64,000 bases of DNA, taken from the NCBI GenBank assembly GCA_964016885.1, contig OZ024745.1:80166001-80230000 (forward strand). Reading direction: 5' to 3'. Below the pieces are notes generated by a model. That model had not been told where the DNA came from, did not search any database, and saw nothing but the letters and a program-made list of their open reading frames with translations. This document shows, piece by piece, positions 31,071 through 64,000 of the stretch. Positions within the stretch are counted from its first letter, which is position 1; each line of letters starts with the position of its first letter. The DNA comes from Eledone cirrhosa (Eukaryota). The translations under genes were made by a program, and so were the position numbers.

Positions 31071-31675
31071 TGTCACCACCAATGATGGCCTTGGGACCCC
31101 CTGCTGGTCATTTAACCTTGTTCTGGTGACGCAGCTTGATGGAGCATGCAACTACTGATATACTCATGTTTATAGGCTCTGAGGATTCCTGCCATGGTGC
31201 ATGGATGAAACACTGTTAGCTAATAAAATAATGTATTTCTAAGCACCCTTTGGTTATTCCTATAACTATAACGGCTCTGTAGTACTAGTTATCCTACATT
31301 GAGCTAAAACCACACTGTCACACCAAGGGCAATATATCTACATGTCTGGGCATATTGATATATTTGTCAACGAAATATATATATATAATCATCATTTCAT
31401 TTTACGTCCGCTTTTCCCTGCTTGCAAGGGTGGGACGGGAACTGATTCTGGCTTGATTTCTACAGCTGGATGCCCTTCCTAACACCAACCTCATTTACAG
31501 TGAGTGCTGGGTGCTTTTTTGCCGTGGCACCTCCACGACCACTTTCCAGTGGAATGATAGGGACCCCAGTCCCTATCATCTCATTTCTACAGCTGAGTAT
31601 ACAAGCGTATACAAGATTTTAATTATTCGAATATTTTACAAAGCCTGATGTATATTTTTTTTTGTTTTTTTTAAG

Positions 31676-57867: not shown

Positions 57868-58189
57868 TATATGCTATATACATATATTTTTTAATTTGAA
57901 TTATTGATGCTCTGGACAAACATCCATTGAGCTTTTCTGCTGAGAAGCATATTCATCATACATATTATATATGTTATGATACTTTGTATTAGTATATATA
58001 GAGAGAGAGATGTATTATGTGTGCGTATAGCGAGTATGATGCTAGGGTGGATAGTGGTGTTACGGTGTTTATTCAGTTGTTGTTGTGTGTACTCACTTAT
58101 GGATTGCTCAGTGATGTGGTCATCTGTCACTGTTGTATGGAGTGTAGGCGAAGGAATTTTGTGCCTGATGCAGTGTGACCAGAGATTGT

Positions 58190-60950
58190 AGATAAAGCAA
58201 TTAAAAACATGAAGGTAGGGAAGGCAGCTGGACCATCTGGTATAGTTGGTGAGCTGCCAAAAGCGCCTGGCATGGTAAGATATGTGCTAATCAGATGCAT
58301 AGTTAATCAAGTAGGACCTAAAGAGCTTATACCCAATGGCTGGTGCAGCTGTATCACAGTAAATTGCTACAATGGCAAGGGAGATACATTAAAGAGAAGT
58401 AATTACAGAGGTATCAAGTTAATGGACCAGATCATGAAAGTTGATGAAAGTGTTATAGCACAATTAATCATGGATAGAATCCAGTTAGATGAGATGCAGT
58501 CTGGATTTATGCTAAATGGGGGCACTACCAATGCCTTCTTTCTGGTGAGGTACTTAGCTAAGAGTTAAGCCAATGTATCTAGCTTTTGCAGATCTGGAGA
58601 ATGCTTTGACAGGGTTCCACGCTCTATATTCTGGTGGGCACTCAAAAAACTAGGTATAGACAAATGGCTTGTGAGGTTCATGCATGCCAGGTATAAAGAC
58701 GTGACCAGCAGAGTGAGAGTTGGCAATGAGTACAGTGATGAATTTGAAGTGCAGGTGCAGGTCCACCTGGGCTCAGTCTTCAGTCCACTCCTCTTTATCA
58801 TTGTCCTTCAGGGCCATCCCTGAGGAGTTTAAAACTGGCACTCTATGAGAGCTCTTATATGCTGATGACCTAGTCCTCATAGCTGAATCCATAGGAGAGT
58901 TAAAGACAAAATTTCAAGCATGTAATTTATGGAGTGGGATTGCAGGCTGGTTAACGGAAAAGATAGACTTTATATGTGACAGATTCCTTCAGTTGCCTGG
59001 GAGGTTCCCTAGACGTAGTTGACAACTTTTGTTACACAGGCAATCAAATTAGGAGTAGGAGCCAGTCCAGCTCTTTTTCCTAGCTTCTTGAAAGCCTCCT
59101 TTGATGATGGGTGAAGGTTTTTCTTTTCTGCCAGTTATTTTATTGATTAAAGCCCATGTAGCTGTGTGCTATTTGTTCATATGAAGGGTCTTAAGTTTGT
59201 TTATTTTTCCTTCTACATACTCTGCAAGAGCAGTTGTGTAGCCTCATCAAGATCTTTTTTGCATTGGGTCATTTCACTTTTCAGTAAGCTAGTTGGATTT
59301 GAGTTGTACTGAGAAAAAAGACTTTGCAGTTTTTTGCGCGCTGGGGATACTAAGGTATGTGAGCTTAATTTCGTGAGCTTCCTTTTGGTCTTTGTACATA
59401 AAAGGAGAGTAAAATTTGCTAGCCACTGCCATCATGCCACCTATGAAACCACAAGCAGTCACTAATAACAGGGGGCACAACTTCTCCTACCTTGATGTAA
59501 TCTCCAGAGATTCTGGTATTGAAATCCAGGACTTGGCATCGGCAATGAACGACAGACCCACGTAGAGATCAATTGTTGAGTCCATTTTGGCTGAGGCAGC
59601 TGGATGATGAGGAGTTGGGGAGGATGCACCAAACGTGTGATAGCTAGGATAAGAACAGGCTGGAAGAAGTTTAGAGGGCAGTTACCGCTGCTGACAAGGG
59701 CTTTTCTCTCAGAATGAAGAGTAGACTATATGATGCCTGTGTGTGAACTGCAATGCTACATGAATCTCGACTGCATAATGCCTACAGAGGCTAGAAAGAA
59801 ATGAATAGAGCATTCTCCAATGGATGTGCATGAGCAGCATAGCATAAGCAAATTGAGAAGAAAACTTGGCATAAGAGGAATTAGATGTACTGTGTGAGAG
59901 AGAAGACTGCATTGGTATGTACATGTTATACATATGGAAGAAAGCAGCTGCATAAAGATATGCAAAAAAAACCCAGTGGCTGGGATCCATGGAAGAGGCA
60001 ACCCCAAGAAGACATAAGATGAAGTTGTGAAAACCGACCTTTAAAAACAGATATGACAAAGGACCACCTCTATGCTATGGTGGTGAAGACCCGACCAACA
60101 GCAGTCAATGTGACCTAACATATTCCCATGTCCTCCCTCCCTCTCCCTCCTCCTTCCCCTTCCACTAGCACTCCCTAACAGCTATTTCTCACCATCACTA
60201 CACCACCCCCTCAAACACTCACTCATTAGCTGCTGCCTCCTCCAAAGCCTCTAGACACCCTCAATATTCGCACTCTAGTAACCAGTCTCCTCACTCTTAT
60301 GCATCCCACCCATTCCCTCTCCACTAGCACTCTTAGCAGCTATCCTCATCAACACTACATAACCCACTCCTACTATACTCCCTCCCAAACTCATCCCTTA
60401 GCTGCTATCTCCTCCACCACCACCACCACCAAATAAAAAGAAAATGCTTTAGATGCCCCCACTATCGCATCCTAGTAGCTACTCTCTGCACCCCACCTAT
60501 TCGCCCTCCACTATCATTCCTTAGCTATCCCCTCCATCAATACATCTCCCTTTCCCATCACTGGTGAGTGCCAACCCCACCACTTCGATGTTCTCATTTC
60601 CATGGGAAAAAACAAAGGGTCAAGAGGACTCTTCATTTGTGCCACCGTATGCCAACCTCTCTAGTGTTGTGATATACCTGATAAATACACTCAGTACATG
60701 TGGTAGGAAGAACATCCAGCCATAGAAAGCTTGCCAAACAAAGGGTTGGGAGGACTCTTCAGTTGTGTCAAAGACATTACAACCTATCCTGTTCACTTGG
60801 TAGAATGTAAGACTATACATAAGAGAGATGTATACCCTTGGCCTGTCTGGGAGGTCAGTAACTTCGCTTCAGTACTGACTTGGTCTATGTAGACTCGTCC
60901 AACCCTTGCTAGCAGGGAAAGCGTTCAATAAAACAACAATGATGATGATA
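58190..60950 (+). mobile_element. Old fragmented RTE copy
   Basis: MKVGKAAGPSGI..NYRGIKLMDQ and LYADDL remnants, degenerate tail; interrupted at about 58930-59610. Confidence 0.75.
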
Positions 60951-61422: not shown

Positions 61423-61622
61423 NNNNNNNNNNNNNNNNNNNNNNNNNNNNNNNNNNNNNNNNNNNNNNNNNNNNNNNNNNNNNNNNNNNNNNNNNNNNNN
61501 NNNNNNNNNNNNNNNNNNNNNNNNNNNNNNNNNNNNNNNNNNNNNNNNNNNNNNNNNNNNNNNNNNNNNNNNNNNNNNNNNNNNNNNNNNNNNNNNNNNN
61601 NNNNNNNNNNNNNNNNNNNNNN
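61423..61622. other. Assembly gap (200 N)
   Basis: Run of N. Confidence 1.
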
Positions 61623-64000
61623 ATGACATGTTTCGCTTTTGTTGAAGCTTATCAAGGCCAACTACCCCGCCCGTCTGCTGAGATTAATGATGTTATATTC
61701 TTATAGAAATCTAGTAAATAATCAGGAGCTGATTATGCAGAGCGGTTGTTGGTCAGGCAGAAATTAAAAATTAGAATTGTAGCTCTGAAATAGCAATATA
61801 TATATGGATGTAAATATAATGTATTTTGCAATACACTTTATGCTTAATTAAAAGCATTTTGAAGACCGTAAGCTATTGTTTTAAAGTAGTGACAAATTCA
61901 CTCACTTCGATCTCAGCAAACAGGAGGAGATAAGCCGACATGACATGTTTCGCTTTTGTTGAAGCTTATCAAGGCCAACTACCCCGCCCGTCTGCTGAGA
62001 TTAATGATGTTATATTCTTATAGAAATCTAGTAAATAATCAGGAGCTGATTATGCAGAGCGGTTGTTGGTCAGGCAGAAATTAAAAATTAGAATTGTAGC
62101 TCTGAAATAGCAATATATATATGGATGTAAATATAATGTATTTTGCAATACACTTTATGCTTAATTAAAAGCATTTTGAAGACCGTAAGCTATTGTTTTA
62201 AAGTAGTGACAAATTCACTCACTTCGATCTCAGCAAACAGGAGGAGATAAGCCGACATGACATGTTTCGCTTTTGTTGAAGCTTATCAAGGCCAACTACC
62301 CCGCCCGTCTGCTGAGATTAATGATGTTATATTCTTATAGAAATCTAGTAAATAATCAGGAGCTGATTATGCAGAGCGGTTGTTGGTCAGGCAGAAATTA
62401 AAAATTAGAATTGTAGCTCTGAAATAGCAATATATATATGGATGTAAATATAATGTATTTTGCAATACACTTTATGCTTAATTAAAAGCATTTTGAAGAC
62501 CGTAAGCTATTGTTTTAAAGTAGTGACAAATTCACTCACTTCGATCTCAGCAAACAGGAGGAGATAAGCCGACATGACATGTTTCGCTTTTGTTGAAGCT
62601 TATCAAGGCCAACTACCCCGCCCGTCTGCTGAGATTAATGATGTTATATTCTTATAGAAATCTAGTAAATAATCAGGAGCTGATTATGCAGAGCGGTTGT
62701 TGGTCAGGCAGAAATTAAAATTAGAATTGTAGCTCTGAAATAGCAATATATATATGGATGTAAATATAATGTATTTTGCAATACACTTTATGCTTAATTA
62801 AAAGCATTTTGAAGACCGTAAGCTAAAACAATAGCTTACGGTCTTCAAAATGCTTTTAATTAAGCATAAAGTGTATTGCAAAATACATTATATTTACATC
62901 CATATATATATTGCTATTTCAGAGCTACAATTCTAATTTTTAATTTCTGCCTGACCAACAACCGCTCTGCATAATCAGCTCCTGATTATTTACTAGATTT
63001 CTATAAGAATATAACATCATTAATCTCAGCAGACGGGCGGGGTAGTTGGCCTTGATAAGCTTCAACAAAAGCGAAACATGTCATGTCGGCTTATCTCCTC
63101 CTGTTTGCTGAGATCGAAGTGAGTGAATTTGTCACTACTTTAAAACAATAGCTTACGGTCTTCAAAATGCTTTTAATTAAGCATAAAGTGTATTGCAAAA
63201 TACATTATATTTACATCCATATATATATTGCTATTTCAGAGCTACAATTCTAATTTTTAATTTCTGCCTGACCAACAACCGCTCTGCATAATCAGCTCCT
63301 GATTATTTACTAGATTTCTATAAGAATATAACATCATTAATCTCAGCAGACGGGCGGGGTAGTTGGCCTTGATAAGCTTCAACAAAAGCGAAACATGTCA
63401 TGTCGGCTTATCTCCTCCTGTTTGCTGAGATCGAAGTGAGTGAATTTGTCACTACTTTAAAACAATAGCTTACGGTCTTCAAAATGCTTTTAATTAAGCA
63501 TAAAGTGTATTGCAAAATACATTATATTTACATCCATATATATATTGCTATTTCAGAGCTACAATTCTAATTTTTAATTTCTGCCTGACCAACAACCGCT
63601 CTGCATAATCAGCTCCTGATTATTTACTAGATTTCTATAAGAATATAACATCATTAATCTCAGCAGACGGGCGGGGTAGTTGGCCTTGATAAGCTTCAAC
63701 AAAAGCGAAACATGTCATGTCGGCTTATCTCCTCCTGTTTGCTGAGATCGAAGTGAGTGAATTTGTCACTACTTTAAAACAATAGCTTACGGTCTTCAAA
63801 ATGCTTTTAATTAAGCATAAAGTGTATTGCAAAATACATTATATTTACATCCATATATATATTGCTATTTCAGAGCTACAATTCTAATTTTTAATTTCTG
63901 CCTGACCAACAACCGCTCTGCATAATCAGCTCCTGATTATTTACTAGATTTCTATAAGAATATAACATCATTAATCTCAGCAGACGGGCGGGGTAGTTGG
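61623..64000. repeat. 317-bp tandem array, near-identical units, orientation inverted at about 62825
   Basis: Unit starts at 61623, 61940, 62257 and 62574; reverse-complement units follow 62824. Confidence 0.97.
63023..63114 (+). ncRNA. Type I hammerhead ribozyme, U3-A8 core variant; also 63340-63431 and 63657-63748 (+), and 61910-62001, 62227-62318, 62544-62635 (-)
   Basis: GGCC/GGCT stem I; TTGATAA core 63052-63058; GCTT-caacaa-AAGC stem II; GAAA; ACAT-gtc-ATGT stem III; GTC triplet ending at 63087; long G-U-rich stem I extension. Confidence 0.82.

Follow-up and report, generated by a model that had tools for sequence, protein, structure and literature searches.

A dispersed 317-bp hammerhead repeat in Eledone cirrhosa: a probable non-LTR retrozyme mobilised by Penelope-like elements

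Two inverted arms of a ribozyme-bearing unit

The right-hand end of the window, the 64,000-nucleotide stretch of Eledone cirrhosa DNA analysed here (contig OZ024745.1, positions 80,166,001 to 80,230,000), is occupied by repeated DNA. Tandem-repeat analysis of the window gave a period of 317 bp in two arrays, each 99-100% homogeneous, which bears out the unit length given in an earlier note on this DNA. That note had described one tandem array, but the locus consists of two inverted arms, at 61623-62825 (minus strand) and from 62824 to 64000 and beyond (plus strand). The left arm contains 3.79 tandem units that read away from the junction, and its outer end is lost in a 200-N gap (61423-61622). 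The right arm has 3.7 units inside the window and extends 1156 bases past it, for a total of 7.36 units. The arms meet head to head at 62824..62825, where two shared bases join unit position 62 of the left arm to position 54 of the right arm. Because the arms are inverted relative to each other, each strand carries three hammerheads. Rfam matches to a microRNA and to HAV at 62780-62881 were rejected, since they arise from the palindromic junction and lie far below the gathering scores. Elsewhere in the window, decayed reverse transcriptase (RT) fragments lie near the locus at 58130-60100, and an isolated hammerhead-like pattern match at 31175 (plus strand) may be due to chance.

Unit numbering starts after the predicted cut, so that 63088 is position 1 and C17 of the ribozyme is position 317. 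One monomer, from cut site to cut site, thus spans 63088..63404 on the plus strand and has 34.7% GC. Its plus strand has no frame of at least 40 aa, and the only such frame in the unit is a 46-aa stop-to-stop frame on the antisense strand. We found no tRNA in the 317-bp unit, nor the open frame with RT plus GIY-YIG that marks an autonomous Penelope-like element (PLE). The repeat has the features by which non-LTR retrozymes are recognised: a unit length within 150-450 bp, a type I hammerhead in every unit, two or more units in tandem, low GC and no coding capacity.

The six complete hammerheads claimed earlier were recovered as matches to the Rfam HH9 model, at 31.1 bits each (E 1e-4), below the 52-bit gathering score, with a seventh partial copy cut by the N gap. 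The first plus-strand copy, with its extended stem I, covers 63023..63114, and the next two lie at 63350..63427 and 63667..63744. The minus-strand copies lie, from the junction outwards, at 62548..62625, 62231..62308 and 61914..61991. Cuts are predicted after C63087, C63404 and C63721 on the plus strand and after C62571, C62254 and C61937 on the minus strand. The type I topology proposed in the note is confirmed as a three-helix junction with a conserved core, open at helix I. In stem I, 63048-63051 pairs with 63088-63091 and 63023-63037 with 63100-63114; this 15-bp extension is present in the computed folds, as are the three extra small hairpins reported for the unit, and the folds are more stable than those of shuffled sequences (z = -6.5 and -4.7). 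The 5' part of the catalytic core, UUGAUAA (63052..63058), is followed by stem-loop II (63059..63072; 4 bp, 6-nt loop) and by GAAA, helix III and C17 (63073..63087; helix of 4 bp, 3-nt loop). The unit core, UUGAUAA ... GAAA ... GUC, is thus not the canonical CUGANGA form but a variant in which a U3-A8 pair replaces C3-G8. Covariation to U3-A8 has been reported in PLE hammerheads (PMC4209133, cited from part of its text).

Conservation of the core and stems was assessed on 10 hand-picked copies from the 317-bp family (family A) and three related families (B to D, described below). In this alignment 94.3% of cells were paired, against 43-53% in slid controls, with covariation in all helices. Two-sided changes were present at 18 of the 30 pairs, including all 4 of stem-loop II, and the 3-8 pair was C-G in six relatives and U-A in four. 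The covariation score was reached by 0 of 500 shuffles, a count that is not a probability because the aligned rows are related. Covariation of this strength shows selection on the ribozyme fold, and from these sequence comparisons we take the unit and its type I hammerhead to be real. Helix III reads as a palindrome in all four families, either perfect or interrupted by a single base at its centre, as in family A. Computed between two family A units, it forms a 10-bp duplex of -10.5 kcal/mol, and such predicted inter-unit pairing fits what is expected of dimer-type ribozymes. In the folding prediction for a circular monomer, the catalytic fold is less stable than the minimum by 5.3 kcal/mol, and stems I and III have pairing probabilities near 0.

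A dispersed family with two fixed ends

The dispersed copies anticipated by the earlier note were found by BLAST and pattern search. A 30-nt pattern of the ribozyme core had 547 exact matches on many contigs of the genome (0 for the reversed control), mostly within short dispersed insertions, and the best BLAST-matched copies were 98-100% identical. Two sets of loci were analysed. The first comprised 71 loci (the top BLAST hits, all listed matches on contig C1 and part of those on C2), of which 70 remained once a long array (L171-L172) was left out of the counts. The second comprised 39 new loci picked by one of the two end types, B, from matches to two B-end patterns (63 and 9 genome-wide). 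The long array, at G000:C2:207686300 onward, has more than 45 units of 95-96% identity belonging to an older subfamily, with alternating 304/316-bp spacing and 184-bp interruptions; it may represent a retrozyme turning into a higher-order satellite. Such a long array was present at only 1 of 110 loci, the others having at most 13 units per arm. The label of satellite therefore does not hold: the locus is head-to-head, and the family is dispersed and mobile with no single satellite block. Sequencing runs X3 and X6 (organisms C and D) contain relatives of 90-99% identity with letters of the older subfamily, which speaks to presence only.

The related families were found adjoining fetched family A copies. 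Family B (14 candidates; L035:5480-6190, L072, L074 and L079) has a unit of about 310 bp whose core is canonical and whose palindromic helix III is minimal, shares the start-site region of family A and forms arrays of at least 10 units. Family C (2558 candidates; L039) is about 90% alike, and family D was found at L033, L132 and L177. Several further elements were observed. At L111:6900-8000 lies a tandem unit without sequence relationship to these families; it measures about 511 bp, carries a type I hammerhead and contains a TA run. Hammerhead-like motifs of other families are present at L036:9061-9160, L170:1170-1269, L028:3026-3124 and L108:7482, one of them with a U3-A8 core. At L030:3278 a retrozyme arm is truncated at unit position 15 and fused to coding sequence of another RT-like kind, and this entire block is duplicated across an N gap. 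The left flank of L138, L126 and L066 carry tandem and inverted copies of another non-coding repeat, perhaps a further PLE passenger.

The head-to-head arrangement is common. An inverted 5'-truncated copy joined at the 5' end was present at 57 of the 70 loci of the first set, the other 13 being single arms, and at 31 of the 39 loci of the second. Outer ends cluster at two internal sites of the unit. In the first set, 51 of 114 were at unit 141 (site A), and site B covers units 166-175, with 39 of 114 at 167. The two arms of an insertion almost always use one site each: the 57 pairs of the first set comprised 50 A-B, one A-A, one B-B (L026) and five with one end lost or elsewhere, and the second set gave 28 A-B, 0 B-B, 2 other, 1 cut by the fetch and 8 classed as single-armed by threshold. 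Two of these 8 have a very short, A-B-compatible second arm that was left uncounted. In total, 78 of the 80 two-armed insertions with both ends classifiable are A-B (50/52 and 28/28; P about 5e-21 against free choice, with L139 and L149 looking like one duplicated insertion). Families B, C and D end at the two equivalent sites.

In the window, site A lies at 63220..63228 on the plus strand (unit ~133-141), its exact base hidden by TA shared with the target. The ends of family C place it near unit 133, the remainder being target TA, which would put A and B about 34-41 nt apart. Site B lies at 63253..63262 (unit 166-175, mainly 167, then 172 and 174). The outcome is a tail on one arm only, with an A-B spacing of 26-41 nt. 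Between the two sites, a 13-nt block (63230..63242) is identical in all four families, and we infer that it is a candidate RT-binding signal. The right arm of the locus ends at site B (unit 167) against (TA)n (G000:C5:80231156), so by the pairing rule the lost end of the left arm is predicted to be site A (unit ~141) within a TA run. Outer ends abut TA-rich DNA in 104 of 114 cases, and a target-site duplication, which exceeds 4 bp in non-LTR retrozymes when present, is unreadable because the ends lie inside (TA)n. Inner junctions are spread anywhere along the unit (KS test; P = 0.40). Clean junctions share at least 2 nt by exact match in 13 of 24 cases, against 18% expected; overlap of BLAST matches gives 31 of 57, an inflated measure. 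Inserts or mismatches occur at 32 of 56 inner junctions, and 8 inserts longer than 5 nt repeat nearby sequence.

Palindromes of this kind could in principle be made at the DNA level, by extrachromosomal circles or replication template switching giving satellites or fold-backs, or could be assembly artefacts at a gap. The locus does adjoin the 200-N gap, the long array at L171-L172 has over 45 units spaced in a higher-order pattern, and one insertion (L026:3413-6347) has two B ends within a perfectly inverted flank of 529 bp on both sides and may itself be a fold-back event or an assembly artefact. However, many loci share the architecture while differing in their junctions, with arms as short as 59 and 77 nt (L236), the older families have the same two end types, and a fold-back would not produce the regular difference between the two ends. 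We consider an origin by fold-back or misassembly very unlikely for the family.

Penelope-like elements and the mobilising enzyme

The genome contains 10595 GIY-YIG candidates, and the 50 loci examined among 150 listed fall into about six PLE families. RT is encoded in three open frames, of 938, 1096 and 636 aa, two of which also match the Pfam GIY-YIG domain. They show a CxxxxCxxC motif ahead of the nuclease, a mark of Neptune/Nematis elements (PMC8557442, cited throughout from part of its text). Long RT/GIY-YIG frames of Neptune/Nematis-type PLEs lie at L101:3809-6622 and L103:1275-4562, and two near-identical repeats 4979 bp apart make the L101 element look recently active. The repeats of these PLEs hold minimal hammerheads, several with U3-A8. 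Four autonomous families have two discrete ends in TA runs, so a PLE with the (TA)n target of the retrozyme exists in this genome. All 8 distinct head-to-head pairs of these elements join a short end with a long end, so that the footprint of the 317-bp family matches that of the PLEs residing beside it.

Published work on PLEs describes the same features. The protein of a Poseidon PLE cleaves AT-rich DNA on both strands and extends each of them; it begins reverse transcription at either of two internal sites, whose separation accounts for a tail of 30-40 bp (PMC11167929, likewise cited from part of its text). PLE insertions carry an inverted 5'-truncated copy and a tail, often at one end only, in (TA)n targets (PMC8557442). 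The A and B ends correspond to this tail plus inverted 5' copy, which points to a non-LTR retrozyme that depends for its movement on the reverse transcriptase/endonuclease of a PLE, a reading of the genomic footprint in which we are fairly confident. The identity as a retrozyme put forward in the earlier note agrees with the unit size, the GC content, the hammerhead in each unit and its covariation, and the Penelope-like mobilisation that the note raised is supported by the A-B pattern together with the 8/8 pairing of the PLEs. The best explanation of the family is a young non-autonomous Penelope-like element of the retrozyme kind.

The principal alternative for the enzyme is a LINE, of RTE or similar type, acting through ordinary 3'-end priming combined with L1-type twin priming. 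Twin priming by LINEs yields inversions, and the inverted arms could come from it; moreover, the RT fragments near the locus are presumably RTE-like, judging by eye. On the other side, each of the two outer ends lies at a fixed position inside the unit, where an RNA 3' end and a variable site would be expected of a LINE, and the PLEs of the same genome obey the same end rule. We found no support for the RTE mobilisation also raised by the note, as the ends have no RTE-type 3' tail and follow the PLE rule. Mobilisation by a LINE is largely refuted and retains a minimal probability.

The autonomous partner was sought by homology. In six families from the 50 GIY-YIG loci (of 150 listed and 10595 candidates), we found no homology between the unit and a PLE. 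BLAST of the four retrozyme families against these loci returned only a neighbouring retrozyme insertion (L042) and TA matches, which were rejected. The pLTR sequence that a non-autonomous element might share with its partner amounted to a 7-nt end match with the L101 family, which is our best guess for the partner, if a little short of an even chance. At one locus (L121:2014-2815, G000:C4), a retrozyme B arm lies head to head with an A-ended 110-nt piece of an L101-family repeat, through a 48-nt TA-like insert. The piece is 3 substitutions from its nearest L101-family copy, and the retrozyme arm is 100% identical. Since pLTR pieces of the L101-family type are common in TA tracts near L121, this single ambiguous case may be a hybrid insertion from two RNAs or two neighbouring insertions. 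No hybrid retrozyme/PLE insertions were found among the 8 single-armed loci of the second set.

The RNA template and relation to known elements

Variation among units bears on the template. In the first 70 loci, 107 unit variants were fixed in all covering units, 191 were singletons and 9 were mixed, and the second set gave 19, 27 and 1, respectively. Variants seen at one locus within the sample were fixed in both arms at six loci (L038, L134, L141, L166, L203 and L231) and in all 6-7 units at L140. Fixation across units and arms implies a bottleneck of a single unit at some step. A circle would provide such a bottleneck, unlike a multimer that stays uncut. Subfamily markers agreed between arms in 279 of 285 comparisons, agreement also expected if one source locus dominates or is active at a time. 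The other 6 involve two markers at L128, L129 and L148, whose differing arms indicate that both arms need not be copied from one molecule; a second template or subsequent conversion may account for them. None of the 256 passes through the cut site had an indel within 5 nt, which argues against end-to-end jumping on cut linear RNA, with a background expectation of only about one indel per 5-nt-flank window. On this sequence evidence, which bears on a circle indirectly, we slightly favour a circular or recircularised monomer as the usual template. Circles are abundant for the retrozymes of coral, mussel and axolotl, and their copying into tandem cDNA by a PLE or LINE, as a route of reintegration, has been proposed (PMC7229834, cited from part of its text).

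The same PLE machinery might instead copy a linear multimer that is transcribed off a homogeneous array and left uncut, with a hammerhead that is slow or only frees the 5' end. Several observations accommodate this. For the Poseidon PLE, hammerhead cleavage was dispensable for insertion and uncut RNA was the main substrate in vitro (PMC11167929), and only 1 of 9 predicted Xenopus retrozyme dimers was cleaved in vitro (10.64898/2026.07.22.740005, cited from part of its text). The catalytic fold is not favoured in our predictions, and scar-free passage through the cut site fits an uncut transcript equally well. Arms are also short: in the second, unbiased set the median is 188 nt, 17 exceed one unit and 32 of 56 pass the cut site, a fairer figure than the 105 of 114 of the first set, which is biased by the choice of loci. 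Against an uncut multimer, new variants would remain confined to a single unit of the daughter and give mixed arrays, whereas mixed variants are rare relative to fixed ones, subfamily markers are nearly always all-or-none, and the covariation indicates selection on the fold. In addition, two arms (L150 and L203) end exactly at unit position 1, suggesting that cut RNA exists. Arm ends did not pile up significantly next to the cut site at positions 1-10 (4 against 1.9; P = 0.12), and those at positions 1-40 numbered 16 against 8.3 (P = 0.011, uncorrected, in one of seven windows, with no such excess in the first set). We regard an uncut multimer as possible but somewhat doubtful.

Some further observations concern long arms and circles. 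At L025 and L028, some long arms show later duplication, and a trimeric circle as the source of L025 was rejected, ranks 2-3 being without the variants. Contigs from runs X1 and X2 continue beyond a full turn of the unit, reaching 347 nt (317+30) in X1; a tandem repeat would give the same, and we do not count them towards a circle.

With a circular monomer as the favoured template, the following course of events is proposed. A multi-unit locus would be transcribed, and the hammerheads would cut out the 317-nt monomer, probably as dimers through the palindromic helix III. The monomer would then be ligated into a circle. The RT/GIY-YIG protein of an autonomous PLE, presumably as a dimer, would bind the RNA near the 13-nt block and, by extension from published in vitro work, cut both strands of a (TA)n tract. 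One cDNA would be primed from each side of the break, one at A and the other at B, and each could continue past the cut site for more than one turn of the unit. Joining of the two cDNAs by their 3' ends, helped by brief microhomology or by small inserts copied from a template, and fill-in would follow. The resulting insertion would be head-to-head, with only one arm bearing the 26-41-nt tail, and some arrays would grow later by DNA duplication. That a PLE protein dimer, with one subunit beginning at A and its fellow at B, copies the ribozyme-made 317-nt circle by rolling circle and can pair two different RNAs in a single insertion is a more specific version that we advance tentatively.

The family shares several traits with the animal non-LTR retrozymes of coral, mussel and axolotl, and newt satellite 2 cited with them (PMC7229834), namely, a tandem unit of 150-450 bp, one type I hammerhead, GC below 50% and no ORF. 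Its palindromic helix III resembles that of amphibian dimer-type ribozymes. In contrast to these retrozymes, its insertions are short and head-to-head with two fixed starts in (TA)n (the words "inverted" and "microsatellite" are absent from the main text of PMC7229834), and its core is U3-A8. Cleavage, expression and circles were demonstrated for those elements and are putative for the 317-bp family. The autonomous EN+ PLEs compared (Poseidon PAc, PMC11167929; Neptune, Nematis and Naiad, PMC8557442) likewise have two internal RT starts, a one-end tail, an inverted 5'-truncated copy, a (TA)n or AT-rich target and a hammerhead in the repeat, for which the U3-A8 core is also known (PMC4209133). 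They differ from this unit, which is 317 nt in all and encodes neither RT nor endonuclease, and minimal PLE hammerheads lack its long stem I and 4-bp helix III. The non-autonomous Chlamys elements, such as MRC1 (PMC8557442), are also non-coding PLE passengers with multicopy head-to-tail insertions; they share 3' sequence with an autonomous partner, and no such sharing was found for the 317-bp unit in the six PLE families sampled.

Non-LTR retrozymes are therefore already known, and their mobilisation by PLEs was proposed earlier (PMC7229834; 10.64898/2026.07.22.740005). The latter source concludes, with the same mobilising class, that retrozymes are non-autonomous PLEs, on the basis of co-occurrence and Xenopus pLTR homology; here the basis is the insertion footprint, and pLTR homology was not found in the six families sampled. 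An analysis of ends was not found in the part of that source available. The open literature gave no description of the 317-bp family, nor of any retrozyme with inverted arms and two start sites, and the word ribozyme was not found in the available part of an octopus repeat annotation (PMC13282606).

The family gives a footprint-level answer to how animal retrozymes re-enter the genome. It also provides a simple rule, one start site per arm, for the inverted and tail structures of PLEs, the origin of which has been called undefined (PMC8557442). The presence in one genome of a 317-nt template, two mapped starts, the 13-nt block and long PLE frames makes the choice between circular and linear templates testable in vitro. 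The recurrence of such palindromic arrays is a warning that they are real and not assembly errors. If the PLE protein does copy circles by rolling circle and can pair two RNAs, the hybrid-like insertion at L121 would name the L101 family as the partner, the inverted-plus-tail structure of PLEs in general would be explained, and these insertions would record in the genome the retrotransposition of circular RNA.
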